Source: an uncultured Candidatus Bathyarchaeia archaeon | GTDB lineage: Archaea > Thermoproteota > Bathyarchaeia > Bathyarchaeales > DTEX01 | Reading direction: 5' to 3' | NCBI GenBank assembly: GCA_964600125.1 | Contig: CAZRIK010000001.1 | Coordinates: forward strand, 5,412-66,622 | Length of the DNA stretch: 61,211 bases | In this document: in pieces, positions 1 through 61,211 of the stretch | How the letters are laid out: each line of letters opens with the position of its first letter | How positions within the stretch are numbered: position 1 is the stretch's first letter | Notes under the pieces: generated by a model | Databases searched by the model: none | Told to the model about the DNA's origin: nothing | The model's input: the letters and a program-made list of their open reading frames with translations, nothing else | Program-made: the position numbers and the translations under genes

Positions 1-63
1 TTGGCTATCTTGGCTATCTTGGCTATCTTGGCTATCTTGGCTATCTTGGCTATCTTGGCTATC
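1..63. repeat. Tandem repeat, 7 x 9 bp (TTGGCTATC)
   Basis: Read directly. The unit repeats head-to-tail 7 times from base 1, so the array may continue beyond the window edge. Confidence 0.95.
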
Positions 64-202
64 TCCTGTATTTCATCCATGCTCTGTCGCCTCACCACTT
101 CACCCTCCCGTACATACAGGCCCTGTCCATACAGGCGTATATACCCATGCATATACCTTGGTCTGTATATATGTGCATGGATGTGTGCAGCCTAGGCTAT
201 GT

Positions 203-231
203 GGTCGTGTGTATATACGGTCGTGTGTATA
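203..231. repeat. Direct repeat GGTCGTGTGTATA x2 (16-bp period)
   Basis: Copies at 203-215 and 219-231. Each runs into a GTATAYAC-type palindrome. Confidence 0.85.
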
Positions 232-278
232 CATATATACCCTTGCCAAGATGCCCCACCCCATGCCTATTTTTTTTG

Positions 279-311
279 TGGATGGGCCTTGGATGGGCCT
301 TGGATGGGCCT
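279..311. repeat. Tandem repeat, 3 x 11 bp (TGGATGGGCCT)
   Basis: Three perfect head-to-tail copies at 279-289, 290-300 and 301-311. Confidence 0.95.
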
Positions 312-465
312 AGCAAGAAGCGTGCCAAGCCTAGGGGTTTTTGTGCATATTTTGTCAACATCTGTCTAAACTTTGGTCACCTCATCCCAAAAGTGTCTAA
401 AAAAAAGTGGCCGACTGGCCAGAATCATTCTCAGAATTTTGGCTATTAAAAAAAATTAATTTTTC

Positions 466-494
466 TTGACTTTTCAATTTTTTTACTGTACAAC
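466..494 (+). promoter_or_regulatory. Candidate sigma70-like early promoter
   Basis: TTGACT (466-471), 17-bp spacer, TACAAC (489-494). An A/T-rich tract lies upstream (446-465). By-eye match only. Confidence 0.3.
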
Positions 495-545
495 TTCGAA
501 GCCACCGAAAGCACTCACATTTCTCACAGTTTTGGAGTTTTCCCC

Positions 546-731
546 ATGCCCAATCCCTCCCTGAGCCGCCAGTATTTCCCCTGTTTCTTCCGAGCCAGCC
601 CCAGCCCCGAGCCCGTGGAGGTGCGCGGGAATGAGGTATTGACTGTGCAGGCCGATGCCCGTGACCAGTGTATATACCAGCGCAAGGGTGAGGCGTGTAC
701 GACGTATGAAGGATTGGAGACAGGGAAATGA
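546..731 (+). CDS. Hypothetical small protein (61 aa), uncertain
   Basis: ORF with GGAG 8 nt upstream of the ATG. It lies in a locally GC-rich stretch (about 540-720) downstream of the candidate promoter. No recognisable motif. Confidence 0.3.
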   Translation: MPNPSLSRQYFPCFFRASPSPEPVEVRGNEVLTVQADARDQCIYQRKGEACTTYEGLETGK

Positions 732-897
732 ATGGCAAGAACTTTGGTGAAGGCTTAATTGTGACGGCTTGGATATGTGGGTTGGCTGCGTCAGGTGTAG
801 TATTGTTTGCCCATTTTGTGATGAATATGCCGTGGGCGAATGTGTTCCCGTGAGCGCCCCCGTACTGCAACAAATATTTGAGAAAAGGAATAATTCG

Positions 898-1140: not shown

Positions 1141-1141
1141 C

Positions 1142-1552: not shown

Positions 1553-1637
1553 ACTACAACAAACAAACAAGTACACATTTATCTTCCTGTTTTTCATTTG
1601 GTAGATGGAGAAAACAGGGGAAAAAGGAGTTAAAGTC

Positions 1638-3009: not shown

Positions 3010-3738
3010 ATGTGTACAATTATGACGGTCGACAGAGACACATTTGAAGCAAATAAGACAGAATATCTCTCACGGATTGCGGCAGATGAATTAGGTAATC
3101 CACACGGCATTGCAATCATGATGTATTCGTACAAGCATGGCATGATAAAACTAGAGGCAAATGCGTTTCAGGCTGGTTTACTTTCCTGTGACTGGGATAG
3201 AGTTTGGTTGCATTGTCGGTATGGTACGACAGAAACAGACGGCATATATGGATGCCATAACTTTGCCAGCGGTGATGGTTGGTATATACAGCACAATGGT
3301 ATGGTACGTTGTGGTGACGGGTTGCCCGTGGATAGTATGGCGATTGCCCAATTAGTTAAGCTGTTAGGCCCACAAGATGCCCTGAAATCGCTTGAAAGAA
3401 CAGGAGAAACATACGCCAACACGTTCATTGTGAATGAGTATGGCGAGTATTATGTAGGTCGACTCACGTCTGGCACCCTATTCACAGACGGCAAAGGGAA
3501 CTATTCAAGCAAGCAAGTAGCTACCATTGTTTCCCCTGTCGCAACGAATAGCATTGCAGAATATACGACAGTGAATCATTCAAAACTACCCGAAAAGATA
3601 TTGACTGTGGCAGTAAAATTGGCAGAAAAAGGCATATTCCATACGTCTGAATGCAATGAAAAGACCCGTAAAAAACTCCAAGCAAACTTCAGTGAACTTG
3701 AGCTTGAACGTCTGAATGACTACCTTGCTGGCTTCTGA
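3010..3738 (+). CDS. Class-II (Ntn-type) glutamine amidotransferase-like protein
   Basis: Starts with Met-Cys (MCTIM...), the N-terminal nucleophile position. LHCRYGTTETDGIYGCHNF...WYIQHNGMV matches the GATase-II pattern R-x-x-T-x-G...hPF...HNG. Confidence 0.7.
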   Translation: MCTIMTVDRDTFEANKTEYLSRIAADELGNPHGIAIMMYSYKHGMIKLEANAFQAGLLSCDWDRVWLHCRYGTTETDGIYGCHNFASGDGWYIQHNGMVRCGDGLPVDSMAIAQLVKLLGPQDALKSLERTGETYANTFIVNEYGEYYVGRLTSGTLFTDGKGNYSSKQVATIVSPVATNSIAEYTTVNHSKLPEKILTVAVKLAEKGIFHTSECNEKTRKKLQANFSELELERLNDYLAGF

Positions 3739-3832
3739 CCTGCTACAACAAAATTTTGACCCTTTTTCGTGTACAAATTTGTACTTCTGATGTAAAGTGC
3801 AAATATCCGATAGCTAGAAAAACAGGGGAAAT

Positions 3833-4828
3833 ATGAGCAATCCACCGCTGAACGTAAGAATTGATTGGGCATACCTACTGGCGGATATTTGTATCCGGTA
3901 CGACCAAGAGGTTGCCGTGTTGCTACCTTCAAGGGCAAGCCTGATACGTTTCTTGCACGATCCCCAATATGCTGTGGATGTTCTAAAAGCGACAAATAGG
4001 CAGATCCTTTGGGCGTGTGTTTGTCATGATATTTGGAATTACTTGAAAATACCCTTTTCTACCCTGAACAAATGGCGTGTTGGAGGACACAACCAGACGG
4101 AACTAGACAGTTTTGAATCGCTTTATTGTTATGACCAGAAACCCATCAAAAGAGGCGGGAAGATATATGAAAAAGATTGCATTGATCCAAGCTGGATCGT
4201 TTCAAATATTCAACAGTGTAAAAGCTTTTCTGATGTTGCATGGATACTCGACAGAAAAAGGAAAGATATCGACAGAATTTCGGAAAGCATTCCGAGAGTT
4301 CAATTGTGTGGAGTCCCAAGCGGTATGCAGCAGCAGGGCACAGTTGGAGTACCTGAGCCAATCGGCGCTCTTTACAGGGAAAAACTTGGCAAGAAACTGC
4401 CTACAAGAATGGGATCTTTTGAGCAGTGTATCGGGTTCATCAAGCAGACCTTCAGACAGATAGATTACCATGCTGACCCAGTAGACAGGCCCGTGGTCAA
4501 GGAAAACAGGGGAAAAATAGTCCCTACTGATATTGCCATGCGTGACGTGAACACCTACTGGGAACGTGCCCCATTCAAGCTGGGTTTTGTGACAGAGAAT
4601 ACTGCGTTTGCAAAGACCTTCGACAAGATTGGCAAGAAGCCATTTATTATGTTGGCACACGCATTATCTGTAAGTAGGCGAGCACAGGCAATCATTTATC
4701 TTCCTGTTTCAAATATCTGGTTCAGTGATATTCACTTTTCTACGTTCATATTTTTCTTAAATTATACCCCAACTGATGCGGAAAAAAAGTGCCTACTACA
4801 ACGTGGTTTTTTGTATAAGAAAGAGTGA
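3833..4828 (+). CDS. Hypothetical protein (331 aa)
   Basis: ACAGGGGAA motif RBS at 3822-3830, ATG at 3833. The C-terminal ~55 aa look low-complexity but no stop occurs earlier. Confidence 0.65.
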   Translation: MSNPPLNVRIDWAYLLADICIRYDQEVAVLLPSRASLIRFLHDPQYAVDVLKATNRQILWACVCHDIWNYLKIPFSTLNKWRVGGHNQTELDSFESLYCYDQKPIKRGGKIYEKDCIDPSWIVSNIQQCKSFSDVAWILDRKRKDIDRISESIPRVQLCGVPSGMQQQGTVGVPEPIGALYREKLGKKLPTRMGSFEQCIGFIKQTFRQIDYHADPVDRPVVKENRGKIVPTDIAMRDVNTYWERAPFKLGFVTENTAFAKTFDKIGKKPFIMLAHALSVSRRAQAIIYLPVSNIWFSDIHFSTFIFFLNYTPTDAEKKCLLQRGFLYKKE

Positions 4829-5193
4829 TTATGTATGTATTTTTCAGAAACAATAGCTTCAACCCATGGGAGTTCCTTGGGTATCAAAAAGAAACGACCA
4901 CAAAGAACAACCTTGTGGAAGCTTTCAACGGTTATTATTGGTGGCCGAAACAATCAATCGTTACAAAATGCACTATTCACACAATATATATGATAATAAA
5001 GACGCATACAGGTAAAGAGTTCGTGGCCATATCCCATCGTGACCTAATCGTGCTGAAACAAATAGGTGCATACATGCCCATTGATTCATTAGGTTTCTAC
5101 ATCAACACAAACAGGGGAAAAATATGGTCAAGAAGCTCGGTAGAATTAAAAGACCTACGTTATGCGAAAATAGACGACAGCTTAGAGGAGTAG
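4825..5193 (+). CDS. Hypothetical protein (122 aa)
   Basis: ATGA-type overlap with the upstream stop. AAGAGTGA lies upstream of the ATG. Confidence 0.5.
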   Translation: MIMYVFFRNNSFNPWEFLGYQKETTTKNNLVEAFNGYYWWPKQSIVTKCTIHTIYMIIKTHTGKEFVAISHRDLIVLKQIGAYMPIDSLGFYINTNRGKIWSRSSVELKDLRYAKIDDSLEE

Positions 5194-5312: not shown

Positions 5313-5405
5313 TGCAACGCTTAGTTATTTGCAATGCCGTAATCACTTCACGACAGAAATGCGTACATGTATTAGGGATATCCGATCTATGCGACAGGAG
5401 AATAA

Positions 5406-6425: not shown

Positions 6426-6827
6426 ATGATGATTTTCATAATAGTTTTCATCGTGTTAGTGGCTTTCGCTGGTGTAATTCTTCTCCCAGTTTTCTTCTCT
6501 GAGAAAAAAATGAAAACTCAACTAAAAGACTTATGTGAAATGAAAGAGGAGCGCAAACCAACTAAAACTGTTTTCTCCCTGTATCTATCAGACAATCCCA
6601 TGCACGCACCAAGAGTGATTGAATATGAGGATAGGTTAACTTACATGGGATGCGATGAGCTCATATTACTTTCTGGAGATAGTCACTGGTTTACAAGACA
6701 ACTGAAAGATGATTCGGTGAATTTTGTGCAGTTACCTACTGATAATGGGATAGTGTATTTGAACAAGAGAGTCATTCACTATTTTACACTTGAAGTGAGA
6801 GAAATACAAGCAGAGACAGGAGAATAA
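6426..6827 (+). CDS. Membrane-anchored hypothetical protein (133 aa)
   Basis: ATG at 6426 right after the upstream stop. The N-terminal hydrophobic helix is MMIFIIVFIVLVAFAGVILLPVFF. Confidence 0.65.
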   Translation: MMIFIIVFIVLVAFAGVILLPVFFSEKKMKTQLKDLCEMKEERKPTKTVFSLYLSDNPMHAPRVIEYEDRLTYMGCDELILLSGDSHWFTRQLKDDSVNFVQLPTDNGIVYLNKRVIHYFTLEVREIQAETGE

Positions 6828-7607: not shown

Positions 7608-8008
7608 AACTAAACCAAATAGTCACCTACGCAACCAAAGGCAGTGCTGGCTTTGATATTGTCGCAGACGAAACCATTGTCATCAAACAAAGACATACTG
7701 CGAAAATCAAGACCACTCTTCGTATTGTTTCTGCAGAACAGGGAGAATATGTGTCCATACTCCCAAGGTCTAGCCTTTCTTCCAAGGGTATCCTTGCAGT
7801 GGATGGGACAATTGATGGGGATTATGAAGGGCTTTGGTCGGTGGTAATCCTCAACACAACAGGGGATATATACAAGATTCACGCTGGTGATCGAATTGCA
7901 CAAGGGATTTTGAGGAGGTTCAACTACATCGAAGGTGCACATGTGGCTGATCGTATTCGGGGTCAAGGCGCATTTGGTAGCACTGACCAAGTGAAACAGG
8001 AGAAATAA
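7604..8008 (+). CDS. dut: dUTP pyrophosphatase (trimeric dUTPase)
   Basis: All five dUTPase motifs are present: GSAGFDI, PRSSLSSKG, GTIDGDYEG, GDRIAQ and RGQGAFGST. Confidence 0.92.
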   Translation: MKLNQIVTYATKGSAGFDIVADETIVIKQRHTAKIKTTLRIVSAEQGEYVSILPRSSLSSKGILAVDGTIDGDYEGLWSVVILNTTGDIYKIHAGDRIAQGILRRFNYIEGAHVADRIRGQGAFGSTDQVKQEK

Positions 8009-9309: not shown

Positions 9310-10275
9310 TTATCCTCCTGTTTCTTCAGAGCTATGGATATTTGAGACAGGAGAATAAGAGACTCCCATGCCATACCCACGCAAGGTTTCAGGATACATA
9401 TTTGCACGGCTGGTGGCAAACTCATAGGAGTAATTCTCACACCCATCCATCTCACCACAAATTGTCTGAAACGGACAATATTTACAACCATCCCATGCAG
9501 GCGTACCAAAGATATCCACCCATGTAGGTCGTACTGGCATCATTTCTTGAGCTACCCACGACTCATCCATCAGTTCCATACCTTTGTGGAAGCCTGATTC
9601 AGTGATGATTGTCTTGACGCCATCACAATAAAGGTCATCACCTACCAATTCCAACTCCATAACATTTATGCCTGGTTCAAATGCAAGCTTTTGTTTGGTC
9701 TTGAAATCGTAGTTACTGAACCATACGGGCAGCCCATAAAGTACACTACCAATCTTTGTCTTGTGGTAAATCATTTGAGTGAGGCACTGCAACACAGCCC
9801 CAAGCTTTGGCTTACTCTGGTGAAATGCTGCACTGGCAGTATTAAAAGATTGTACGGATTTCATTTCTACGGGATATATTTTCCCTGTCGCATGGTTGGT
9901 AACATACAAGTCAGGTCGTGCAGTAAGCCCTATACCACCTGCTACAACAGGAGGAAAAATAGCCTGAGCTTGTTCTTCTTCTGTCCAAGTAATATTTACA
10001 TCAGACTTAACCAACATCTGCTTGATCACTTCCTCAAGTGCTCTACCAGTTGCCCAAGACACAAGTGATTTGATGGTTGGACGTTCTTGGATACCAAGTG
10101 CACGAAAGGCAGATGTGCGAGGACAGTGTGAGGAATCATCAGCAATGAACACACTATTTTTAATAGAAAATTGAGTAACGTTCGCACCACGAAAGGCAAG
10201 TAGTTCAGGTTGAGGGTCAAATTCCCCTACCATCTTTTCCACACCAGACAGGAGAATTAGATCTAAATCTTTCAT
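9310..10275 (-). CDS. PD-(D/E)XK nuclease, Cas4/RecB-like with Fe-S cysteines
   Basis: N-terminal Cys (DSSHCPR), D...EMK core (RPDLYV...VEMKSVQ), and C-terminal CKYCPFQTIC cluster. This matches the Cas4/DUF2800-type phage exonuclease architecture. Confidence 0.8.
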   Translation of the reverse strand: MKDLDLILLSGVEKMVGEFDPQPELLAFRGANVTQFSIKNSVFIADDSSHCPRTSAFRALGIQERPTIKSLVSWATGRALEEVIKQMLVKSDVNITWTEEEQAQAIFPPVVAGGIGLTARPDLYVTNHATGKIYPVEMKSVQSFNTASAAFHQSKPKLGAVLQCLTQMIYHKTKIGSVLYGLPVWFSNYDFKTKQKLAFEPGINVMELELVGDDLYCDGVKTIITESGFHKGMELMDESWVAQEMMPVRPTWVDIFGTPAWDGCKYCPFQTICGEMDGCENYSYEFATSRANMYPETLRGYGMGVSYSPVSNIHSSEETGG

Positions 10276-10607
10276 GGATGTTTCTCCTGATACTCACTCT
10301 CGGTAATCATATGGGCAGCATATACAGACAAATTAGAGTCAGTCTGTGAAGCCACTGCAAGGGCAAGTTCATAACTCCAAAACAATGTATCCTCTACCAC
10401 GAACATATATACAGGAGGATTACCATATTTCTCCTGTTCTTCCTCATCAGTATATACATCCTCTTCTTCATTTTCTTCTTGAGGAGACAGGAGAGTTGAT
10501 GTACTTACTTTTTCCTTTAGGGATAAGTTTTCCACCACTATCCTTGACAATTCCTCGAACATTTCTTCTAAATGCTCGTGCATCAGTTGCTCTTTTTCTT
10601 TTTGCAT
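10272..10607 (-). CDS. Acidic hypothetical protein (start uncertain; ORF open to 10673)
   Basis: Helical then Glu/Asp-rich sequence. The stop overlaps the nuclease start. The N-terminal part overlaps ORF 10468-10998 in another frame. Confidence 0.45.
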   Translation of the reverse strand: MQKEKEQLMHEHLEEMFEELSRIVVENLSLKEKVSTSTLLSPQEENEEEDVYTDEEEQEKYGNPPVYMFVVEDTLFWSYELALAVASQTDSNLSVYAAHMITESEYQEKHP

Positions 10608-10998: not shown

Positions 10999-11121
10999 AG
11001 TGTGCTCCTGCGTAAGTAAACTTTATTATTCAATCCGTTGAATAGGGGGAAATGTAGGTGACAGGGAAAATAAGGTCAAGGTGTACGAGGAGATTTTGAC
11101 GGTATGTGAGGCACTTTGTGG

Positions 11122-11157
11122 GAGACAGGAGGAATATGGCTATTTACCTTCCTGTTT
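11122..11157. promoter_or_regulatory. Conserved intergenic element, copy 1 (GAGACAGGAGGAATATGGCTATTTACCTTCCTGTTT)
   Basis: Near-identical block recurs at 55658-55694. It contains an inverted pair of the ACAGG/CCTGT motif. Confidence 0.6.
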
Positions 11158-11278
11158 CGTTGACTATGTCCATGGGTATGTTTTGTGTGGGTAAGAAGGG
11201 TACGCTCGCTTGCGCTCGCTAGGAGGAAACAGGAGGATTATGGGGTGTTATTGTTGGGGTTTTTGCTTTTAATGGGAT

Positions 11279-11374: not shown

Positions 11375-12382
11375 GTGAAAGGATTCATCGTGGATGATAC
11401 TGGAGAGGTAAAATTTTTACAAGGATTACGTGATTTTTGTGCTGGTCAATGGATAATATACGAAAATCCTGAGCCAAGTAGTTTTTGTAGTGAACAAGAT
11501 CTAAACAATTGGTCTATTGTTCAAGCCCATCGGAATGGGGAAGGGTTTGAGGCTTTTGTCCAGTTTTGTCGCACATCCACAAGAGAGTTCCACGAATCTG
11601 TAAATCGTTTGAAGATGGTACAGACAAAATCAATACTAATGCAATTTATTGATAGTAAGTTTTCGATTGGTATAAAGACAATTGATACTGAGGCAATGAA
11701 AAAATCAATAAGAAAAAAAGATGAAGACTCAGAACTGATAAGAAACATAAAGATATCTGTTCAAGCACAGATACATGATACAGGTACCTCATATGGATTT
11801 TTTCCAAATTTACGTATGACATATGATATGTTACTAGCCATTGGTTTGATAAAAATATCAAATAAAATACAAAGAGGGACAGGAGAATTAGTATCCTATT
11901 TCCCCTGTCTTCCTATTTCACTTTTTCGTAAATTATTTCATTTATATGAGGATAAGATACCAAAAGAAAGATTAAACAACTTTGGAATTTTTGTTGAGTT
12001 TTCAGGGTACTCATATCTGTTCTTTAAAGATAGAGATTACCCTCCAATAAAAGTTAGAGGCGGTAGAAAATCAAATCATAATTTATTAAAAATATTAAAA
12101 GAAAAGAAAGTGAGATATTTATTCCAACCTTGTGATCATGTTGTTGCAGTTGATTTTGATATTTATGAGGCCAGTGTTTTAGATGAGTTGATTCAAAGAA
12201 GAGATAATTTATCAAAATCAAAAAGAAAATCTCACAGACTGCATAAAGATGCTCAAACATTCCCTCACCCAGAAAACCCCACCCAAACAATTACTGCCAA
12301 TGAATATGCGAAACTAAAAGGTATCTCAAGACCTACTGCATATGCTAGGTTGAGAAAATCACAGGAGTCCAACACCTCATGA
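11375..12382 (+). CDS. Putative DNA-binding protein with C-terminal HTH (paralogue of 55925-56875)
   Basis: 335-aa ORF (an in-frame GTG at 11390 has the better RBS, AAAGGA). The C-terminus TITANEYAKLKGISRPTAYARLRK is HTH-like. Confidence 0.65.
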   Translation: MKGFIVDDTGEVKFLQGLRDFCAGQWIIYENPEPSSFCSEQDLNNWSIVQAHRNGEGFEAFVQFCRTSTREFHESVNRLKMVQTKSILMQFIDSKFSIGIKTIDTEAMKKSIRKKDEDSELIRNIKISVQAQIHDTGTSYGFFPNLRMTYDMLLAIGLIKISNKIQRGTGELVSYFPCLPISLFRKLFHLYEDKIPKERLNNFGIFVEFSGYSYLFFKDRDYPPIKVRGGRKSNHNLLKILKEKKVRYLFQPCDHVVAVDFDIYEASVLDELIQRRDNLSKSKRKSHRLHKDAQTFPHPENPTQTITANEYAKLKGISRPTAYARLRKSQESNTS

Positions 12383-12457
12383 AAAACTAACCCATATTTC
12401 CCCTGTTTCTCTAGTAAATGTGTGAATGTATGTACAACATGAAAGGAACTTTTCGAT

Positions 12458-14454: not shown

Positions 14455-14811
14455 GTGGACAAGCTTGAAGTATCCCGTTTCTTTTTCGCACTGACCTTCA
14501 AGGACTATGGTCTTTGGCAGGGACAGGAAGTAGATTACTCCCTAATTCCCCTGTCTTTCACAGGTAAACAGATGGGAGATATTCTACGGCGAGTAAAACT
14601 TTCAAATTACGTCGGATGGGAGAAATTCTGTCATGACAAGTACAACAGGAAGGTAATGGTTGAGATTTGCGGTAAGGGCCTGCCCGATGAAATCGTGGAA
14701 GCTACTATTGCCGTCCTGTTGGAATACCAATCCGAGTTCGATAGATGGAAAAACGCACAAGCGAAACTAATCATTCGCAGAAAGGAACCTAGAGATGGCG
14801 ATCTCATTTAA
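14455..14811 (+). CDS. Hypothetical protein (118 aa)
   Basis: GTG-start ORF with a weak RBS. Its stop overlaps the next gene. Confidence 0.5.
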   Translation: MDKLEVSRFFFALTFKDYGLWQGQEVDYSLIPLSFTGKQMGDILRRVKLSNYVGWEKFCHDKYNRKVMVEICGKGLPDEIVEATIAVLLEYQSEFDRWKNAQAKLIIRRKEPRDGDLI

Positions 14812-44250: not shown

Positions 44251-44282
44251 AAGTAGTGACACACTGATTTATTAAGATGGTT

Positions 44283-44926: not shown

Positions 44927-44945
44927 CTCTTATTCTCCTGTCTCA

Positions 44946-45794: not shown

Positions 45795-45833
45795 AAAAAA
45801 CCCCTATCCATTCTTCCATGAATGAGACAGGGG
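45795..45833 (-). terminator. Rho-independent terminator after the major capsid gene
   Basis: Minus strand reads CCCCTGTC(T)CATTC-atggaa-GAATGGATAGGGG followed by TTTTTT. About 13-bp stem with one bulge and one G-U pair. Confidence 0.7.
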
Positions 45834-45854
45834 AAATACAGTTTAGACCTACTC

Positions 45855-48713: not shown

Positions 48714-48753
48714 ATCTATTTCTCCTGTGTGAAAAAACCAATTTCAAAACAAC

Positions 48754-50939: not shown

Positions 50940-52453
50940 TATCTCGATCCCCTTGAGCGGAGTGAAGCCAACGATCCAGACCTACTGAATCGAGGTATAT
51001 TTCTTGAAGAGTCGTTCTGACTGATTCTATTCGCATCTTCTTGCTTTTTCAAATGGTTTGCCCACAGCTCGTGCTTTTCTGTCCAATTTATATTGTGAAA
51101 TTTCTTTGAGACAGGAGAAGGAATCTCCCTACTAAAATACATTACACAGTCAAGAACGTGGTCATTTACTTTATTGATTGTGCCGTTGTCTTTGTAGTGG
51201 TATTCGCCAAATTGTTTAATTGCCAGTGCTGCACCTTTTGCGAAAAACTTCAGGCGGCCTTCTGCAATGACAGTACGTAACCCCATCTGGGCCTGTTCAC
51301 GATTCTTTAAAATACAAGGAGTAAAACCTACAGCGGCTGCGTAGGCTCCGAACCATGCTTCGTGGTTATCGTATCGGGACAAGGCGTACACGAATTCTGG
51401 ATAGGGTTTATACTTTTCAATCTCATCCACAATCGTTTCAGCCTTTGCACGTTGGTCTTTCCACTCAAGCTCCACGCCCTTATGACAATACCAAACACCG
51501 CTGTCAGGATCTTCTGCAAATAAAGCAAGACCAGTAACCCTAGCAGCAGGGTCTGTAAAACGTACCTGCCTCCAGTACGGAGGAATAGGAAAGTCAGGTA
51601 CAACATCAAGATCAAGACCAGCAAACACTCGCCCGTGAGCGTGTTCACGATACCATTCTCCTGTTTCACGAGATTCCCTTTCTCCTTTTGGAAGGTGTTT
51701 CCACGCATCCAAGGCACGTTGAAGTCGTTCTGGCTCATCTCTAAAGTGTGGATTATCCCGCAGTGACCACTGGAAGACAATGACTTTTTTGTTTTCTTCG
51801 ATGAATTTTTCAATCTCTTCTACGGGATTTAGTGGCGTAAATCCAAGGGACACTTCACCATCTAGGTCAAGAGTACGAGTGATGATTTCGCCAATTAACT
51901 TCACGTTTCTAGGCATTTCATCAAGCGTAACGTGGTGAATTGCCTTACCCATAAGAGAGGTGAGGTTCTGGTCGTATGATTTGAATTTTAGTTGGTCGCC
52001 ATTACGAAAGGTAACTGTGTCAATATTTCCCTGATTGGTTTTGTCAATCATGGGTTTGTTTAGTATGGGGTCAGTGTAGTACCATTCTGGAATGAACTTA
52101 CTGAGATATTTGTCCCACATAACCTCATTACAAAAGGTATAGTCAGGCCCAATTCCCCAGAACTCTTTTGGCTTCGAGGAGTCGTAATGCTCTTTCCACT
52201 TCTTGTTGTATGGGTGGTTTCGCATGAGCTTCCATGCAAGATCACGCATGGTGGAGAATGTTTTACCTGCACGGTTTCCACAACGAGCCATCTTAATGAA
52301 AGCGTCACATTTGAAAAATGCAAGCTGCTGGACAAAAGGTGTTTTTGTGGGTTCGCCTGGAATGAACTGGTCTTTATTTCTGTCGCGGTGGTATATACGC
52401 TGACGTTCTAATTCATCAAGCAAACTTAGCTTGAGTCCTATATCATCACTCAT
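50939..52453 (-). CDS. terL: Terminase large subunit
   Basis: Walker A CGNRAGKTFS, Walker B IHHVTLDEMP, and a C-terminal nuclease-like region with conserved Asp residues (FAEDPDSG, NDHVLDC). GACAGGGGAATTAG RBS. Confidence 0.85.
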   Translation of the reverse strand: MSDDIGLKLSLLDELERQRIYHRDRNKDQFIPGEPTKTPFVQQLAFFKCDAFIKMARCGNRAGKTFSTMRDLAWKLMRNHPYNKKWKEHYDSSKPKEFWGIGPDYTFCNEVMWDKYLSKFIPEWYYTDPILNKPMIDKTNQGNIDTVTFRNGDQLKFKSYDQNLTSLMGKAIHHVTLDEMPRNVKLIGEIITRTLDLDGEVSLGFTPLNPVEEIEKFIEENKKVIVFQWSLRDNPHFRDEPERLQRALDAWKHLPKGERESRETGEWYREHAHGRVFAGLDLDVVPDFPIPPYWRQVRFTDPAARVTGLALFAEDPDSGVWYCHKGVELEWKDQRAKAETIVDEIEKYKPYPEFVYALSRYDNHEAWFGAYAAAVGFTPCILKNREQAQMGLRTVIAEGRLKFFAKGAALAIKQFGEYHYKDNGTINKVNDHVLDCVMYFSREIPSPVSKKFHNINWTEKHELWANHLKKQEDANRISQNDSSRNIPRFSRSGSLASLRSRGSR

Positions 52454-52467
52454 CTAATTCCCCTGTC

Positions 52468-53435: not shown

Positions 53436-53565
53436 AACTCACCCGCAATTCTTTAACTGTAATCTGCGAGACAGGGGAATAAATGCTCCCTTGGATTCTT
53501 TTTTCTCGTCTTTATTTAAGTGAGAGATAAGCTTATTTTCCAGCTTCTTACTCATCTTTTTAGGT

Positions 53566-54151: not shown

Positions 54152-54766
54152 TTACAGCGGGAATAATCGTATAAATCCTACTTCTTTCATCTTACCAACG
54201 CCGCCTTTTGCACGACTGCGTCTGTATACACCTTGACCATCTCTGTCTATATTCTTACCCGAAGAAGTATTTCCTTCTACTGTGATAAGGTTTCCCTTGC
54301 TATCCACATCAACAACAATACCGCAATGACCATTAGTTGTGGGTCGGTTGGAGGAATCATAGTGTTGCCATATAACTACACATCCTTTTTCTGGAGTAGT
54401 TAGCCTTTGATTTGCCGGTGTTCCTTCCCAAACAGTCATACAATGTTCTGAAGGAAACAGGGGAAATATGTTGTATTGTGAGTCGACTTTTCCAACAATG
54501 AAGCGCATACTTTTGACGAAATACTGAACTGCTGCCATGCACCACGCCTCACCATCAGCGCTACCATCAACAGCTTTTTGGAAATAATTAACCAACTGTC
54601 CTTGATTATTACCGCCTTGTTCTTGTGCTCCAACCCAACGTTCAGCTTCATAGGTCAATACATCAATGGCGATTTTTCGCATATCAAGTGCAGGTGCTGC
54701 TGGTTGTGCAGGCGGTGCAACAACAACTGGCTGAGTAGCTACTGGGATTTTTTTCCAGATAAACAT
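54152..54766 (-). CDS. CHAP-domain peptidoglycan hydrolase (endolysin)
   Basis: Catalytic Cys context GEAWCMAAVQYF and His context NGHCGIVVDVD, followed by EGNTS. ATG at 54766 (the track ORF starts at TTG 54772). Confidence 0.8.
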   Translation of the reverse strand: MFIWKKIPVATQPVVVAPPAQPAAPALDMRKIAIDVLTYEAERWVGAQEQGGNNQGQLVNYFQKAVDGSADGEAWCMAAVQYFVKSMRFIVGKVDSQYNIFPLFPSEHCMTVWEGTPANQRLTTPEKGCVVIWQHYDSSNRPTTNGHCGIVVDVDSKGNLITVEGNTSSGKNIDRDGQGVYRRSRAKGGVGKMKEVGFIRLFPL

Positions 54767-55026: not shown

Positions 55027-55151
55027 CTTGACCAACTCCTCTCCCAGAAAAAAACATACCCCACAGATAATTGTGAGGTACGCAAAGGAACTTTTTCGAT
55101 AGGCCTAGATTATGCCTGAGACAGGAGAAATAGGCTACCTTATTTCCCCTG

Positions 55152-55478
55152 TTACTTTGGGTAAGCTTGGATAGTACGATAAATCGCAATACCAGCCTTC
55201 AAACATTCCGATGCAAATCCCATCCACTCACCACCGATGGAAGGTAGCTTCGCAAGGATATGGTCTTTGATCGTTTCCAGCTCAACAGCATCAATGTCAG
55301 ACAGCTCGGTAGGGATTTGGTCGATTCCTTCGATTGCAGGCATCAGGACAGTGAACAGGGGAAATAGGTTAGGCACGTCAACCGAGTCAATCTTACCGTC
55401 CTTCAGGGAAGCTACAACAGCGCCTGAGAGGGCAAGTCCAAGGTCAATTACTTCAAGGGTCTCTTTAATCGTAGCCAT
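55152..55478 (-). CDS. Hypothetical protein (108 aa), first gene of the long minus-strand operon
   Basis: ATG at 55478 with an AGAGGTGA RBS. The track ORF extends to 55544. Confidence 0.6.
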   Translation of the reverse strand: MATIKETLEVIDLGLALSGAVVASLKDGKIDSVDVPNLFPLFTVLMPAIEGIDQIPTELSDIDAVELETIKDHILAKLPSIGGEWMGFASECLKAGIAIYRTIQAYPK

Positions 55479-55657: not shown

Positions 55658-55694
55658 GAGACAGGGGAAATATGGGTGATTTACTTTCCTGTTT
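55658..55694. promoter_or_regulatory. Conserved intergenic element, copy 2 (GAGACAGGGGAAATATGGGTGATTTACTTTCCTGTTT)
   Basis: Matches 11122-11157 with a few substitutions and a 1-nt indel. Confidence 0.6.
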
Positions 55695-55924: not shown

Positions 55925-56875
55925 ATGGGTTTTATGTCTGAGCAAGAAGTCAAAGAAGAAATTTCTAAAGCTGCGAAACAGGGAGATAACCATTATTCCT
56001 CCTGTCTTAAAAATCCTAACTCCCCTCTAGTGAAACCTACATTGAAAAACACTAGAGAAGAGGTGATGTTTTACTCGGCTAAAAATTCAGTAAAGAATAA
56101 AAATGCTAAGAGCTTGAAATACTCCATAAATAAAGTGAGAGAACTTGAAACAGGGAAGTTAGAGGATGATGTTTATTCTCCTGTTTCCCTAGATCAAATT
56201 GAAATTCTCCGACTTGTGACTGTCAGTGGGACAGACAGATCAATCCTTTACAATTCACTACGTGCAGCTTGTGATCGTTGGTATGAATCAGAAGATTGTA
56301 AAATGGGATTGTTGCCGCCTTTGGAAGAGATGGTTCCAATTTTAAGTTCAATGGGTGTGATTGAAGTGACCGAAAATTGTCTCATCTTTCCGAATATTTA
56401 TCTTGAAACTTTTCGTAGAGCTACTAGAATTTCTAGAAAGAAAATTCCCACTAAACTTTTGTGTGATTATGGTATCCAGATCGCAAGAGTAAGAGATAAG
56501 AAGATTTATGTTTCGGCTGAGAAACAGGGGAATAAGAGGGTAAATGTTCGTATTGTTATGGACAATGTTACGGAAGCAGATGAGTTAGTCCACGAGCATA
56601 ATCTCTCTGCTCCTCAAGAAAAAATGATAATAGACGTTGAAGAAGTGTACCAGTGGGTTGGTTTTGATGCGAATCAATATGGTGCGAAACGCCTAGAGGA
56701 TTTTGAGAATTTTATTATGGGTTGGGCAACAAAAACTAAAAAAAGTAGAGAGAGTAATCCAAATTTGAAACAATACCTCGATCCCCACACCGGTAAAATC
56801 ACCACCACAAAAGAATACGCTGAGACATACAACGTAGATAGAAAGACCGCCTACCGTCATCTCAACAAAAAATAA
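55925..56875 (+). CDS. Putative DNA-binding protein with C-terminal HTH (paralogue of 11375-12382)
   Basis: 316-aa ORF with a GGAGAG RBS. The C-terminus ITTTKEYAETYNVDRKTAYRHLNKK parallels the C-terminus of the 11375 gene. Confidence 0.65.
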   Translation: MGFMSEQEVKEEISKAAKQGDNHYSSCLKNPNSPLVKPTLKNTREEVMFYSAKNSVKNKNAKSLKYSINKVRELETGKLEDDVYSPVSLDQIEILRLVTVSGTDRSILYNSLRAACDRWYESEDCKMGLLPPLEEMVPILSSMGVIEVTENCLIFPNIYLETFRRATRISRKKIPTKLLCDYGIQIARVRDKKIYVSAEKQGNKRVNVRIVMDNVTEADELVHEHNLSAPQEKMIIDVEEVYQWVGFDANQYGAKRLEDFENFIMGWATKTKKSRESNPNLKQYLDPHTGKITTTKEYAETYNVDRKTAYRHLNKK

Positions 56876-58273: not shown

Positions 58274-58296
58274 CATATGCGTGAACCAACATGAAC

Positions 58297-58557
58297 CTAC
58301 TTATTAGCATCTTCACCCAACTTACGCAAGGCTTTCACATCCTCATCCAAAGTTTCACGTAAATGCTTCTCATTCTCCTGTTGTTCATTTGCTGCACGAA
58401 TAGCCTCAATTGCTGCCTCTAACTGCATGGCTTCATCCGTATGTTTCCTTGCAAGCTCCAACTCCTCCGCAGCAAGCTTCTTTGCACGGTAGTAGCCAAT
58501 GATGGTGTTTATAAGCGAGAGTAATGGCCCCAGAAACTTTAACAACAAACTAATCAT
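58297..58557 (-). CDS. Membrane-anchored coiled-coil protein (86 aa)
   Basis: N-terminal TM helix ISLLLKFLGPLLSLINTIIGYY followed by a charged helix. A lysis or superinfection role is possible but unproven. Confidence 0.6.
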   Translation of the reverse strand: MISLLLKFLGPLLSLINTIIGYYRAKKLAAEELELARKHTDEAMQLEAAIEAIRAANEQQENEKHLRETLDEDVKALRKLGEDANK

Positions 58558-58584
58558 ACCGTATTTCTCCTGTTTTAAAAATAA

Positions 58585-59412
58585 CTACTTACACCTAAAT
58601 GAAGATGCTTCCTTCGACCAAGCATAACCGCAATTGTCGATTGTTGTAGCTGTGGTGGCGTCAAAAGGCCAACGCCAATCTTTACCGTTCCACACTGGCT
58701 TGGGTAGTAGATCTTCCCGTGAGTAGGTACGAAACACAAGGGTGGAGTTTCTTTCTCCTGTTTCGTCAACTATCCTTACTCTCATCTCACAATCTCTTGC
58801 AGGAAATTCTTTTGAAACAGGAGAATTAGAGGTTACCTGTTCCACTGAGTCCGTCTCGCAGCCAATAAACCGTACCACAGCGGGGACAGATTTGGGTGCC
58901 ACAGTCAATGTGATGTTGGCTTTGACTGGAAAGGTGCAAGCTCCCACACCTGTTCCAGCACTGAACTTGGAGTCCCCTAGCTTCGTGGTGTTCCCTTGGC
59001 AGGAGTAACTCAGCTCGTCGGCTCCAATCGGATTGGGTGTGACAGGGAGATAATAAATATCCGCTATCTGTTTGCCCGTTTGAGCGCTGGCAAGGCTCAC
59101 TACATTCGGCAGGTAGGGTTTCTCCCCTACTGGAAGGCCCACAGTCACCTTGCCATTCTTTTGAACGCTCTCTCTCCACCATAACATCCCCTTTTGCTCA
59201 GGTGTGCCGTCGAAGTCATAGACCTCGAAGATTTGGTTTATGTTTTGGGCAATGTATTTACCACGAACAGGAGGAGTAAGTAACGTAACTTCCCTGCTTC
59301 TGGTGGGCTCTGCACAGACAAAAAGTCCCTCAGAGGTGTATGAGCGTGGTAGTTTAAGCGGGCCAATTAACTGAGTGGCACCACAGACAACTGTGATCAA
59401 TAGTGGATTCAT
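58585..59412 (-). CDS. Putative secreted protein (275 aa)
   Basis: Signal-peptide-like N-terminus MNPLLITVVCGATQLIG. The rest is beta-rich. Confidence 0.6.
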   Translation of the reverse strand: MNPLLITVVCGATQLIGPLKLPRSYTSEGLFVCAEPTRSREVTLLTPPVRGKYIAQNINQIFEVYDFDGTPEQKGMLWWRESVQKNGKVTVGLPVGEKPYLPNVVSLASAQTGKQIADIYYLPVTPNPIGADELSYSCQGNTTKLGDSKFSAGTGVGACTFPVKANITLTVAPKSVPAVVRFIGCETDSVEQVTSNSPVSKEFPARDCEMRVRIVDETGERNSTLVFRTYSREDLLPKPVWNGKDWRWPFDATTATTIDNCGYAWSKEASSFRCK

Positions 59413-59636
59413 AGGTCTTCTCCTGTGAGGTTGTTCTCATTGAGTGTGCGATAGAACAATCTACGAACTGCTTCCCAACTGACTGACTTCTCATCACTGT
59501 ACTTACACTTACTGCGTAGAAATTCAGACATGTCCCAGAGAGTACGTCTGTATTTGTCTGCCTTGGTGAAGGTTTCGTAGGCTTCTTGGTCGTCTTCACC
59601 TGGGCCTATTTTGAACTCAAAGATTGCTTTGGTCAC
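59409..59636 (-). CDS. Hypothetical protein (75 aa)
   Basis: The stop overlaps the next gene's start (ATGA-type). Confidence 0.55.
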   Translation of the reverse strand: MTKAIFEFKIGPGEDDQEAYETFTKADKYRRTLWDMSEFLRSKCKYSDEKSVSWEAVRRLFYRTLNENNLTGEDL

Positions 59637-59653
59637 ACCTATTTCTCCTGTAT

Positions 59654-60442
59654 CTATATTCCATTTATTGCTAGGTTTGCAAGGTACAGTTCTAATTGCC
59701 CATTACTTGCAGACCGTTTCATATCACTGCATGAATCACTAAACAACCACCGTGTCTTGTGTGGATTTGGTTTGGTGTTGATATTGTCTAGAGCGAAGGA
59801 ACCGTATGCGAGGAAACGGAAGTAACTGTTACATCCCTGTCTCCTGTAGAGGTTCTTTGCAATCTTACTCGTGATATTTACACCGAGTTTTCGATAGATG
59901 ACCACTTCATCAGCAATCAATCGAAGCTGGTAGCCTTCTGGTGCAGTGAGTGAGGCAGTCAAAAGTGTGCTGTTGATTACACTCGAATGCAGTGCGCCAG
60001 AGGTTACAACTCCAACTCTGCGTAGCAAATCATGGATGATAGGTGTGCGAGTACATTCGTCGAAGCAGACTGCCTTTGGATGTTTGCTGAAATATTCAGA
60101 CGCTTCCTTCCTGTATTTATTGTCATCAGTAGCAGCTAAATACGCCACTACTCCCAGCGTCATATCCCGTGAATCATTGTCACTTAAAACAGGGGGAATA
60201 CAGTAACGCTTCTCACCGGCTAAACAACCCATGCCTGCGTAAAGATTTGTATCCCCAATTCCACACGAGTTACGCCCACGATACGTCGTATTCTGTGCAG
60301 GCAATCCGTCACAAGTATGCGCCCACATTCTCAACTCATCCCGCACTCGAATAAGTTCGTCTTTATTTTGTTTAACCGGCTTATCCGAACCACACGCCGC
60401 AATTAAGCACGTGAAAATAACGATAACAATTTTGCCCACCAT
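59654..60442 (-). CDS. Putative lipoprotein (262 aa)
   Basis: ATG at 60442 with an AGAGGAGAA RBS. Signal peptide plus lipobox: MVGKIVIVIFTCLIAAC-GS. Confidence 0.6.
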   Translation of the reverse strand: MVGKIVIVIFTCLIAACGSDKPVKQNKDELIRVRDELRMWAHTCDGLPAQNTTYRGRNSCGIGDTNLYAGMGCLAGEKRYCIPPVLSDNDSRDMTLGVVAYLAATDDNKYRKEASEYFSKHPKAVCFDECTRTPIIHDLLRRVGVVTSGALHSSVINSTLLTASLTAPEGYQLRLIADEVVIYRKLGVNITSKIAKNLYRRQGCNSYFRFLAYGSFALDNINTKPNPHKTRWLFSDSCSDMKRSASNGQLELYLANLAINGI

Positions 60443-60657
60443 GCTGTTTTCTCCTCTTTGGTGTTGTCTAACTGGTCTAGAATCTCTTCTTGTGTATACA
60501 TAGGATAGTCTAGCAAGCACTCACAATTGTCTTTCGGTACTTCGATGATATACGCATCATTAAACGACACAAGATTATCGAATTTACCAGCACTTGTTGA
60601 TACATTAACCATACGTTGGGTTGTCTTAGATTTGGGCACTACAAAATACAGTGTCAT
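60403..60657 (-). CDS. Hypothetical protein (84 aa)
   Basis: ORF coupled to the upstream LamG gene. Its 3' end overlaps the lipoprotein start. Confidence 0.5.
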   Translation of the reverse strand: MTLYFVVPKSKTTQRMVNVSTSAGKFDNLVSFNDAYIIEVPKDNCECLLDYPMYTQEEILDQLDNTKEEKTAWWAKLLSLFSRA

Positions 60658-61211
60658 GGTACAACTCCCTGAATCTGGCTTGCAATCATGTTAATCATAA
60701 CACCTGTTTTGTTTGATTTAACGTCCTTAATGTTAGGAAATGTGCTGTCATCGCCCATGCGATACCAGTTGGAGCACAGTGCATAATCCGTAAATATGGA
60801 TATATCCGTAGGAACACCAGAATTATATATCTGCTCTATTTGGAAATCGGTTAAGTTTGTATAATATATGGATAATTCATCAATATTACCCTTAAAATAA
60901 TATACGCTAGCATAAGCGCCTATCATGAGAGGTACTGATGTGGTCGTATTAGCACTGCTTAGAGTGTCTGATTGTACCGTATTAGTGCTAAGAACCCCGT
61001 CTATATATATCTTCACACCGGCTGCAGACAACGACCCGTCATATGATATAGCCACGTGCTGCCAAGTGTTACCGCTAACGTCTACGGCAGAATTTGAAAA
61101 CAAAACTAGGTCATTCGTATTTTCAGCGGTTCGAATATAGAACCATATCCGCCCATCGGGGAATATGAAAAATACAGTCCCGTTAGTTCCCTGCCACTTA
61201 GATAGTATTGG
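60654..61211 (-). CDS. LamG/concanavalin-A-like lectin-domain protein, 5'-truncated by the window edge
   Basis: WQHVAISYDG...IYIDGVL...FKGNIDELSIYYTNLTDFQIEQIY is typical of Laminin_G_3. I translated 61104-61211 by hand and the frame stays open to the window end. Confidence 0.7.
   Translation of the reverse strand, partial: PILSKWQGTNGTVFFIFPDGRIWFYIRTAENTNDLVLFSNSAVDVSGNTWQHVAISYDGSLSAAGVKIYIDGVLSTNTVQSDTLSSANTTTSVPLMIGAYASVYYFKGNIDELSIYYTNLTDFQIEQIYNSGVPTDISIFTDYALCSNWYRMGDDSTFPNIKDVKSNKTGVMINMIASQIQGVVP

Follow-up and report, generated by a model that had tools for sequence, protein, structure and literature searches.

A long asymmetric DNA word dispersed over both strands of a tailed-phage genome and conserved at silent positions, with a phage primase as candidate reader

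Chi, the uptake signal sequences (USS) and DNA uptake sequences (DUS), the FtsK-orienting polar sequences (KOPS) and the highly iterated palindrome HIP1 are rare cases in which selection or drive acts on DNA independently of coding. Chi and the intragenic, frame-independent words among them (USS/DUS, HIP1) are defined by cellular machinery, and to our knowledge all words that occur about once per kb on both strands, within genes and irrespective of frame (USS, DUS and HIP1) are host-determined. USS and DUS have an asymmetric core of 9–12 nt with a weaker AT-rich flank, occur about once per kb on both strands and in all frames, are denser between genes, form some inverted pairs, originate by substitution, are missing from recently acquired DNA and come in dialects. 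The same properties were found for the element described here, the word ACAGGRGAA, which is dispersed over a 61,211-nt stretch of contig CAZRIK010000001.1 (the whole stretch analyzed, hereafter the window). In its statistics the word behaves as USS and DUS do, although its carrier is a phage: USS and DUS reside in the chromosomes of naturally competent bacteria and reflect uptake bias, whereas the window is, as predicted from its genes, a tailed-phage genome or most of one. Its sequence is unrelated to known USS and DUS, and on direct reading it differs from AAGTGCGGT, ACAAGCGGT and GCCGTCTGAA. The recognizable genes of the window include those for a P22/SU10-type portal, a T4-type large terminase (TerL), a family A DNA polymerase (PolA), ThyX, a dUTPase, a DinG-like helicase of superfamily 2 (SF2), a Cas4-family nuclease, a CHAP lysin and a PriCT_1-containing protein.

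An exact search of the window found 59 copies of ACAGGRGAA, 33 on the plus strand and 26 on the minus strand, or 0.96 per kb. A sequence-only reading of the same DNA had listed 51 of them (31 plus, 20 minus); every listed position was correct, and eight copies between 56.1 and 59.7 kb had been missed (56524 and 58817 on the plus strand; 56176, 58373, 58565, 58753, 59418 and 59643 on the minus strand). The expected number was 1.23 in dinucleotide-preserving shuffles (maximum 4), 1.2 under a first-order and 2.6 under a third-order Markov model, so that the excess of about 50-fold given in that reading holds against composition (~48-fold) but falls to ~23-fold against the third-order model. The background in ~1.08 Mb of unrelated viral contigs, with seeded hits removed, was ~0.034 copies per kb. 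When synonymous codons were shuffled within each called gene, a procedure that changes neither the protein nor its codon usage and does not affect the 13 non-genic copies, a total of 18.2 ± 2.3 copies was obtained, that is, about 5 intragenic copies compared to 46 observed. Shuffling of codon order left ~1.4 intragenic copies. An origin of the word by chance or composition was ruled out by the dinucleotide, Markov-1/3/5, synonymous-codon and codon-order shuffles, and the codon-preserving shuffles likewise support the earlier view that protein-level selection is insufficient to explain the excess.

Alignment of all copies yielded the full consensus G-A-R ACAGGRGAA W-T-A R-R-G, 14–18 nt in length, with informative flanks at positions -3 to -1 (G-A-R) and +9 to +14 (W-T-A-R-R-G); the core described in the sequence-only reading is real, but the consensus is wider than it had been given. 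The base at +11 is A in 52 of the 59 copies, and the degenerate position that follows ACAGG is occupied by purines only, A in 30 copies and G in 29. The flank consensus was identical when the sense, antisense, ribosome-binding site (RBS) and intergenic copies were analyzed separately, and the copies in all four classes therefore represent a single word. Variants with one substitution are scarce in ACAG and frequent in the tail, where they are chiefly purine transitions. ACAGG itself occurs 268 times in the window, and 116 of these occurrences (64 plus, 52 minus) match at least five of the seven tail positions RGAAWTA, a level reached by control pentamers in only ~5–13% of cases. The excess of tail matches therefore indicates a graded family of ~1.9 sites per kb (the extended family, n = 116). 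The identity noticed earlier, a 20-nt version shared by 9343–9362 (+) and 44926–44945 (-), was reproduced.

A sequencing artefact was considered, since the Tn5/Nextera mosaic end finishes 3′ with GAGACAG. This origin was ruled out: the bases upstream of the copies are unlike the adapter, the consensus runs on 3′ of CAG, copies lie in frame within intact genes, and the word recurs in independent JGI and Logan assemblies of the phage and a close relative. A literature search for the word returned unrelated primer sequences only. The pattern of 14 specified bases gave single chance matches only in IMG/VR, and the extended hairpin pattern gave no match there. In metagenomes the hairpin pattern matched 21 perfect palindromes, all unrelated, but did not lead to any contig rich in the motif.

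The position of the copies was determined relative to a simple in-house gene call of 72 open reading frames (ORFs), which cover ~93% of the window. The exact copies comprise 23 antisense intragenic, 18 sense intragenic, 12 RBS and 6 intergenic sites; the sense intragenic number becomes 23 if the 3′ ends of upstream genes are counted, giving a sense:antisense ratio of 23:23. The extended family shows the same distribution, with 51 antisense, 40 sense, 13 RBS and 12 intergenic members (~78% intragenic). Among sense copies the frame ACA-GGR-GAA, encoding T-G-E, is favored (13 copies), and among antisense copies the frame encoding F-P-C is avoided; this uneven use of frames matches what protein tolerance predicts. 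Word density is ~4 times greater outside genes than inside, and intergenic copies favor the sense orientation by ~2:1. The strand and position checks called for by the sequence-only reading showed no orientation switch in a cumulative plot along the genome and a spacing near Poisson (coefficient of variation [CV] 0.76–0.98), with mean gaps of 0.94 and 1.16 kb per strand, and most copies are solitary. A polarity word of the KOPS/SRS type was rejected for want of such a switch. A HIP1-type word was also rejected, as the word is asymmetric and not a palindromic octamer and the scanned ORFs of the window gave no sign of a methyltransferase. A T7-like promoter family was rejected as well, since every second copy lies antisense within a gene and no RNA polymerase domain was found.

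The word includes AGGAG or AGGGG, and it could be an extended Shine-Dalgarno (SD) sequence or another RNA-level element, the remaining copies being by-products or anti-RBS partners; we regard this as very improbable. Copies 0–7 nt upstream of a same-strand start codon number 12 of the 59 exact and 13 of the 116 extended sites, ~40-fold above random placement, and the intergenic preference for sense also agrees with such a role. The two examples of RBS placement quoted in the sequence-only reading, at 5393 and 6813, were found as described, but the share of copies at called start codons is 20% and not the third it had estimated. About 80% of the copies thus lie away from an RBS, antisense copies are as frequent as sense copies, the invariant C mismatches the anti-SD sequence, most genes use an ordinary GGAG-type RBS without the word, and GACAGAG, the word of the related phage L005 described below, does not resemble an SD sequence. 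SD use is therefore a secondary role of ~13 copies and is already contradicted as a full explanation. The start-associated sequences (SAS) of Cluster K mycobacteriophages are similar in that a 13-bp, SD-containing, phage-specific word precedes many starts, comparable to the 12–13 RBS copies. SAS are known only from upstream of genes and in the sense orientation, unlike the present word, 80% of whose copies are elsewhere and half antisense.

Six convergent inverted pairs (motif, 6–20 nt, inverted motif) were identified, two perfect and about four degenerate, and three of the six lie in regulatory-looking intergenic DNA at ~11.1, 55.1 and 55.66 kb. Their stems are weak (-3 to -7 kcal/mol). A general hairpin or RNA-structure unit was rejected, since only about six weak pairs exist and the pair at 55121/55144 is altered without compensation in the close relative L002. 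Rfam and tRNA scans of the window returned no matches, including no tRNA gene.

Conservation of the word was determined by comparison with a close lineage represented by two contigs of JGI sample 3300063034, L154 for the replication region and L002 for the late region, and by short fragments. The 16-kb alignment with L154 (79.7% nucleotide identity) spans 13 sites, of which 12 are kept; 11 of the 13 are unchanged, compared to 20% of random 9-mers (p = 1.2e-6). The core differs at 1 of 36 third-codon positions, compared to 1986 of 5153 (38.5%) elsewhere (p = 8.6e-7), a divergence ~14-fold lower. The core persists where its flanks have changed, and changes within the word respect its degeneracy (R to R, W to W). 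In the L002 alignment (83–91% identity), the 91% block retains 13 of its 15 sites and the 83% block 2 of its 6, and the third-codon test is suggestive only (p = 0.03–0.07), so that the L154 comparison is the decisive one. With both alignments pooled, 10 of 13 antisense, 8 of 9 sense, 5 of 8 RBS and 2 of 4 intergenic copies are kept, compared to 34% of random 9-mers; the lower conservation of RBS copies than of antisense intragenic copies also speaks against an SD origin. ACAGG with at least five of seven tail matches is 92–98% identical against a background of 85%, while ACAGG with a poor tail is at background. Since conservation grows with tail quality, the long word is a constrained DNA unit in both orientations, and since it is conserved at silent codon positions, a sequence-specific factor appears to read the DNA itself. 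The DNA-level signal postulated in the sequence-only reading is supported by the equality of sense and antisense, the shared flanks and the low divergence of synonymous positions. As judged by these comparisons, the data establish the word as a DNA-level recognition sequence that selection, or else a strong drive, maintains across the resident portion of the genome.

The TerL alignment indicates how copies arise. The sense copy in terL corresponds to T264-G265-E266; homologues read R/K-G-D at these residues, and G265 does not vary among them. The antisense copy encodes S-P-V-S directly after the invariant P445, and there are no insertions at either place. The invariant G265 occupies an aligned residue, so the sense site arose by substitution. 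Gains and losses of sites between relatives are also substitutions, sometimes clustered, as at L154 5173, where 8 of 17 positions differ. Insertion of repetitive extragenic palindromes (REP), miniature inverted-repeat transposable elements (MITE) or small dispersed repeats (SDR) was ruled out, as the copies lie at aligned residues without insertion, are ~78% intragenic and mostly solitary, and are asymmetric with an origin by substitution. The substitution clusters are also what a functionless word would leave if it were generated and maintained by a context-specific bias of short-patch mismatch repair or of gene conversion, of the kind suggested for Vsr and HIP1, with mismatches in near-cognate sites being corrected to the word. 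Such a bias would explain accumulation on both strands, synonymous conservation and absence from new DNA without any benefit per site. One-off variants are, however, enriched and not depleted, the non-monotonic logo (W at +9/+10, strong A at +11) better fits protein contacts, known Vsr-type effects are far below 25–50-fold, and no Vsr-like gene was detected in the window. We therefore consider this explanation unlikely.

The word is lacking from DNA that appears to have been imported. Positions 1–5116 of L002 form a tail-fibre-like module without nucleotide similarity to the window, containing an 882-aa partial ORF, two small ORFs, an HNH_3 endonuclease and a metallophosphatase. ACAGGRG occurs 0 times in this module, compared to ~9 expected, and RACAGG 2 times, compared to ~14 expected, and the lack of the word therefore marks a recent mosaic replacement. 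Within the window, the tnpB gene contains 0 copies.

Related words were found in more distant phages. Among TerL relatives of 41–52% identity, two at about 50%, L008 and L005, have short words enriched on both strands: GACAGG in L008 (30 compared to 5.3 expected), and GACAGAG (21 compared to 4.8 expected) and TGACAG (39) in L005, in each case with the long tail absent. The three word-bearing lineages have the GACAG core in common and an excess density of ~1.1–1.6 per kb, whereas L001, L007, L151, L152 and L153 show no comparable enrichment of the word. The word is probably specific to this phage lineage. L001 (IMGVR_UViG_3300035395_000108) has an enriched word of its own, GGCGGTG/TGGCGGTG, with 9–11 copies compared to ~0.2–0.5 expected (for example at 3424–3445 and 11442–11487). 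Several of these copies lie in GGTGCTGGCGGTG-like runs that resemble Gly-rich coding repeats, and this word may be a protein-level effect.

These observations bear on the question of whether the phage merely mirrors a word imposed by its host, such as a USS-like or HIP-like word, a host-protein site or a repair bias. The known precedents, USS, DUS and HIP1, are all determined by the host, and the USS/DUS pattern is matched point by point (core with AT-rich flank, intergenic density, inverted pairs, substitution origin), including the absence from recently acquired DNA. Furthermore, related but different words in related phages could mirror related hosts, like DUS dialects. The L002 tail-fibre module is difficult to reconcile with this explanation, since phages that share a host range are the usual source of such modules, and so is the word-free tnpB, since IS-type tnpB genes normally come from the host cell. 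No motif-rich contig was found among 120 random viral loci or in the metagenome hairpin scan, both of which are weak tests, and there is no known reason for a phage without detected lysogeny genes to keep an uptake word at synonymous positions. Overall, a host-imposed word seems rather unlikely, and we infer that the reader is encoded by the phage.

The best precedent for a phage-encoded, dispersed and asymmetric word is the stoperators of Cluster A phages. These are phage-specific asymmetric words of ~13 bp that occur genome-wide at about one per 2 kb, are not tied to promoters, are syntenically conserved and drift between related phages (PMC6550527, PMC9283540). By analogy, a phage-encoded monomeric protein could bind the duplex 14–18-bp site and act there as a roadblock, a silencer or an architectural factor, with dimers binding at the few inverted pairs. 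The long, asymmetric and graded logo with its R/W degeneracy and strong A at +11 fits such a protein, as do the conservation of syntenic sites in the relative, the six convergent pairs (three of them in the regulatory-looking intergenic DNA), and the thirteen sites that overlap an RBS. The word differs between related lineages in the way stoperators co-vary with their repressor (PMC6550527), and the asymmetric site is read by a monomeric repressor in Cluster A phages (PMC9283540). However, stoperators number 20–30 and have one main orientation, mostly that of transcription, while the present sites number 59–116, are mostly in genes (~78% intragenic) and run equally in sense and antisense. The similar excess density in lineages with words of 6–7 nt would also be unexpected for a regulator. 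The four proteins proposed in the sequence-only reading as helix-turn-helix (HTH) readers showed no HTH or other DNA-binding match in Pfam, PHROGs or NCBIfam, in which no repressor-like protein was found either, and no integrase or partition genes were detected. Two of the four are further disfavored: the ORF at 55925 sits in an insertion lacking from a relative that carries the word, and the product of the ORF at 11375 shares only 25% identity with that of the ORF in the corresponding position of the relative. Dispersed operators are thus a possibility to which we give rather little weight.

A Chi-like signal would be read in single-stranded DNA by a translocating helicase-nuclease, either RecBCD/AddAB of the host or the Cas4-like and DinG-like proteins of the phage; reading would halt degradation and favor recombination, and the word would thus protect or mark phage DNA. 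In Chi-rich phages (for example lambdoid LLS and P. aeruginosa MD8), the word has accumulated in genes at about one per 2 kb and imported segments lack it (PMC12315714); a density of one Chi per 1.9 kb and Chi-free imports (PMC12315714, PMC3784561) parallel the word-free module described above. The window encodes a nuclease of the Cas4 family together with a DinG-like SF2 helicase, which agrees with this idea, and the P22/SU10-type portal and T4-type terminase suggest headful packaging, whose permuted ends would need both orientations. Chi of other hosts is 5–8 nt long. Chi in those phages is a fixed octamer shared with the host chromosome and is oriented 20:3 or 32:0, whereas the present word is a longer, graded 14–18-nt logo with a degenerate R and conserved near-cognates, and its copies are unoriented (33:26 exact, 64:52 extended) and without positional pattern. 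A Chi-like role is accordingly considered improbable.

The nick sites of T5, phiKMV and tf have consensus sequences of 5–19 nt that are asymmetric, phage-specific and indifferent to reading frame, features that would suit the present word. An ORF at 5636–5962 (+), 108 aa, gave an HNH_3 match below threshold (20.2 bits compared to a cutoff of 24.8), and a small HNH or nicking endonuclease encoded in the early region is possible on this basis. Known nicked phages, however, have ~4–15 sites whose words are not reported as over-represented, and 59–116 nicks would mean that each strand is cut about every kb. Recognition by a phage nicking endonuclease is, if anything, slightly harder to credit than a Chi-like role. 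The sequence-only reading could match the word to no repeat class that it knew, and no described phage repeat class fits: Chi, stoperators, SAS, REP/MITE, HIP1, KOPS and promoter families are each defined by traits that the word does not show.

The reader that we favor, tentatively and as a minority probability, is the phage's own primase, a candidate archaeo-eukaryotic primase (AEP) of the PriCT type encoded by ORF 18871–19719. The N-terminal part of its product contains the motifs IIDCE, GGRGFHVH and RCPG, found by eye in the alignment consensus, which we read as putative AEP motifs I–III. The protein has a single homologue among 5.8 billion proteins. Enzymes of the AEP/PriCT class owe their specificity for template sequence to a helix-bundle domain, and the PrimPol of phage NrS-1 recognizes an 8-nt site (5′-TTTGGTTA-3′) and starts just upstream of it (PMC8718748). 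The site would consist of a strict 5′ element, (R)ACAGG, followed by a purine and then by the more tolerant tail GAA-WTA. The enzyme would bind the template strand 5′-CCTGT(Y)-3′ and start its primer at or beside the adjacent purine. Each strand would need a start site every ~1–2 kb, independently of transcription, and copies would arise by point substitution on either strand wherever the protein or the RBS permits and would then be conserved individually.

Several properties of the word are consistent with a primase. Primase sites (5′-GTC-3′ for T7 gp4, GTG for pRN1 and that of NrS-1) are asymmetric words in single-stranded template DNA, used on whichever strand is primed, and their recognition resides in a zinc-binding or helix-bundle domain; a candidate AEP/PriCT protein is encoded here. 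T7-type enzymes use the template site 5′-NNGTC-3′ and their primers begin with pppAC. The common core GAC-AG resembles this site, and the obligatory purine after ACAGG would correspond to the usual initiating nucleotide. Sites on both strands, independent of transcription, at one per 1–2 kb per strand and drifting between lineages would likewise fit the layout expected for priming.

Other considerations weigh against a primase. Known primase sites are 3–8 nt long, and neither over-representation nor conservation of single sites is known for them; such short sites are frequent by chance. The graded 14–18-nt logo looks more like a site for a double-strand DNA-binding protein, and the loss of one of ~116 priming sites should be cheap, yet the sites are strongly conserved. 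The spacing is Poisson-like and not regular, and the absence of an orientation skew means that the model needs forks in both directions. The AEP assignment of the N-terminal part comes from reading its motifs, as Pfam detects PriCT_1 alone, and the AlphaFold model of the candidate is unusable, with a predicted local distance difference test (pLDDT) score of 43. The reader may also be encoded by the host.

In wider terms, we put forward, with the same reserve, that the virus keeps its own genome-wide "self" word because a phage enzyme needs a template or duplex site of at least 9 nt, about one of which per kb per strand would be held by selection in genes of every kind and at synonymous positions too. 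This enzyme would most plausibly be the AEP/PriCT primase or another component of the replisome or a nuclease. If this is true, no word comparable to USS, DUS or Chi would have been known before to be determined by a phage; it would drift between sister lineages (GACAGG, TGACAG) and be lacking from new imports. A phage-encoded reader would imply a new constraint on viral genome evolution, under which synonymous sites are not free, a built-in marker of resident versus imported DNA, and possibly a protein, be it a primase, binding protein or nickase, that recognizes a long asymmetric site in a sequence-specific manner. If instead the host reads the word, it would be an undescribed bacterial word of the uptake-like or repair type, by which phages could be assigned to that host. 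The positions of all exact copies, of the near-cognates in the 700-bp intergenic region and of the candidate reader are listed in Table 1.

Table 1. Copies of the word, near-cognates and candidate reader in the window
Feature	Position	Strand	Context and conservation
Exact word ACAGGGGAA	576..584	-	sense, ORF 397-918(-)
Exact word	1614..1622	+	sense, close to start of ORF 1605-2633
Exact word	3400..3408	+	sense, ORF 3010-3738
Exact word	3531..3539	-	antisense, ORF 3010-3738
Exact word	3822..3830	+	RBS, spacer 2, ORF 3833-4828
Exact word	4506..4514	+	sense, ORF 3833-4828
Exact word	5111..5119	+	sense, ORF 4825-5193
Exact word	5394..5402	+	RBS, spacer 3, ORF 5406-5639; degenerate inverted partner TTCCCTGT ~18 nt downstream
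Exact word	6816..6824	+	RBS, spacer 4, ORF 6829-7095
Exact word	7996..8004	+	RBS, spacer 5, ORF 8010-8465
Exact word	9347..9355	+	antisense, Cas4-like ORF 9310-10275(-); within 20-nt identity with 44926-44945
Exact word	10248..10256	+	antisense, ORF 9310-10275(-)
Exact word	10429..10437	-	sense, ORF 10272-10673(-)
Near-cognate ACAGGGAAAATA	11061..11072	+	700-bp intergenic region; read directly
Near-cognate ACAGGAGGAATA with inverted partner CCTTCCTGT	11125..11155	+	weak hairpin, -5.8 kcal/mol as DNA
Near-cognate ACAGGAGGATTA	11229..11240	+	700-bp intergenic region
Exact word	11879..11887	+	left arm, convergent inverted pair inside ORF 11375-12382
Exact word	11900..11908	-	right arm, inverted pair with 11879
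Exact word	12398..12406	-	intergenic, antisense to + genes on either side
Exact word	13756..13764	-	antisense, thyX 13691-14431; kept in L154
Exact word	14081..14089	+	sense, thyX; kept in L154
Exact word	14546..14554	-	antisense, ORF 14455-14811; kept in L154
Exact word	16671..16679	+	sense, DNA polymerase A gene; core kept in L154, flanks changed
Exact word	16985..16993	-	antisense, polA; kept in L154, A/G change at R
Exact word	18273..18281	-	antisense, polA; kept in L154
Exact word	18862..18870	+	abuts start codon of primase gene 18871-19719; kept in L154
Candidate reader, 282 aa	18871..19719	+	PriCT_1 at residues 229-273, E=4e-6, above curated cutoff
Exact word	19530..19538	-	antisense, primase gene; kept in L154
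Exact word	20525..20533	+	sense, DinG-like helicase gene; kept in L154
Exact word	21954..21962	-	antisense, ORF 21878-22141; sole site of 13 not kept in L154
Exact word	22130..22138	+	RBS, spacer 5, ORF 22144-22833; kept in L154
Exact word	24508..24516	+	antisense, 1969-aa ORF; kept in L154, flanks changed
Exact word	29276..29284	-	sense, 1969-aa ORF; kept in L154
Exact word	29711..29719	+	antisense, ORF 29437-31860(-)
Exact word	31451..31459	+	antisense, ORF 29437-31860(-)
Exact word	33610..33618	+	antisense, ORF 33036-33749(-)
Exact word	36693..36701	-	sense, ORF 36495-37016(-)
Exact word	37117..37125	+	antisense, 1982-aa ORF
Exact word	40194..40202	+	antisense, 1982-aa ORF
Exact word	42951..42959	-	5′ end of 1982-aa ORF, just inside; kept in L002
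Exact word	43618..43626	-	sense, ORF 42964-44262(-); kept in L002
Exact word	43755..43763	+	antisense, ORF 42964-44262(-); kept in L002
Exact word	44244..44252	+	antisense, ORF 42964-44262(-); kept in L002
Exact word	44933..44941	-	RBS, spacer 6, ORF 44627-44926(-); kept in L002
Exact word	45827..45835	+	intergenic, antisense to - genes on either side; kept in L002
Exact word	48720..48728	-	RBS, spacer 6, ORF 47577-48713(-); kept in L002
Exact word	51111..51119	+	antisense, terL (I-P-S-P-V-S after invariant P445); kept in L002
Exact word	51656..51664	-	sense, terL (T264-G265-E266); kept in L002
Exact word	52458..52466	-	RBS, spacer 4, terL; kept in L002
Exact word	53471..53479	+	intergenic, antisense to - genes on either side; kept in L002
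Exact word	54457..54465	+	antisense, CHAP lysin gene; kept in L002
Exact word	55121..55129	+	left arm, intergenic convergent pair; -6.6 kcal/mol as DNA, z -3.4
Exact word	55144..55152	-	right arm, pair with 55121; both arms altered in L002, uncompensated
Exact word	55355..55363	+	antisense, ORF 55152-55544(-); kept in L002
Exact word	55661..55669	+	left edge of 2.6-kb segment missing in L002; followed by degenerate inverted partner and T-run
Exact word	56176..56184	-	antisense, ORF 55925-56875; degenerate inverted partner downstream
Exact word	56524..56532	+	sense, ORF 55925-56875
Exact word	58373..58381	-	sense, ORF 58297-58557(-); absent in L002, 3 substitutions
Exact word	58565..58573	-	RBS, spacer 7; near-cognate in L002
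Exact word	58753..58761	-	sense, ORF 58585-59412(-); kept in L002
Exact word	58817..58825	+	antisense, ORF 58585-59412(-); kept in L002, Y change
Exact word	59418..59426	-	RBS, spacer 5; 1 substitution in L002
Exact word	59643..59651	-	RBS, spacer 6; within indel in L002

In the protein database, the lineage of L154 and L002 is the one close lineage. The window had no nucleotide match among 50,697 deposited phage records, in which the closest TerL and PolA sequences are only 24–26% identical, and no relatives of PolA were found in IMG/VR. Searches of ~65 ORFs, most of them against Pfam only, gave no match to a repressor, HTH protein, integrase or ParAB, and most ORFs match nothing. As no integrase or partition genes were detected, lysogeny is unsupported. 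Two ORFs of 1969 and 1982 aa (23525–29434 and 37016–42964, both on the minus strand) belong to the virion module and have no Pfam match; relatives have similar giants, and the products may be ejected or internal virion proteins.

A segment of 2.6 kb at 55653–58237 is missing in L002, in which ~10 bp separate the flanks. It contains a tnpB gene at 56992–58128 (-) with OrfB_IS605 and Cas12f1-like TNB domains, whose nearest relatives in plasmids, phages and GTDB genomes are at most 33% identical. The adjacent 316-aa ORF at 55925–56875 (+), which could not be annotated, carries two copies of the word. The TnpB element was ruled out as the source of the word, as L002 has the word without the element and tnpB itself has none. 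The ORF at 11375–12382 (+), 335 aa, is 25% identical to its counterpart at L154 351–1298, whereas neighboring genes show ~80% nucleotide identity, and it is either a fast-evolving or a replaced gene. It adjoins the 700-bp intergenic region and holds the inverted pair 11879/11900.

Positions 1–64 of the window are a perfect 9-bp tandem array, TTGGCTATC repeated seven times, and the contig starts inside this array. An 11-bp array, TGGATGGGCCT repeated three times, lies at 279–311. The two ends of the window show no terminal overlap, and the assembly thus probably broke at a repeat. The palindrome GTATATAC is a second over-represented word in the window, with 13 sites compared to ~1.6 expected from base composition. 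These sites (137, 211, 670, 904, 3282, 10450, 17563, 20486, 23262, 27727, 38915, 50276 and 52391) are mostly intragenic, and four of them lie in the first 1 kb.

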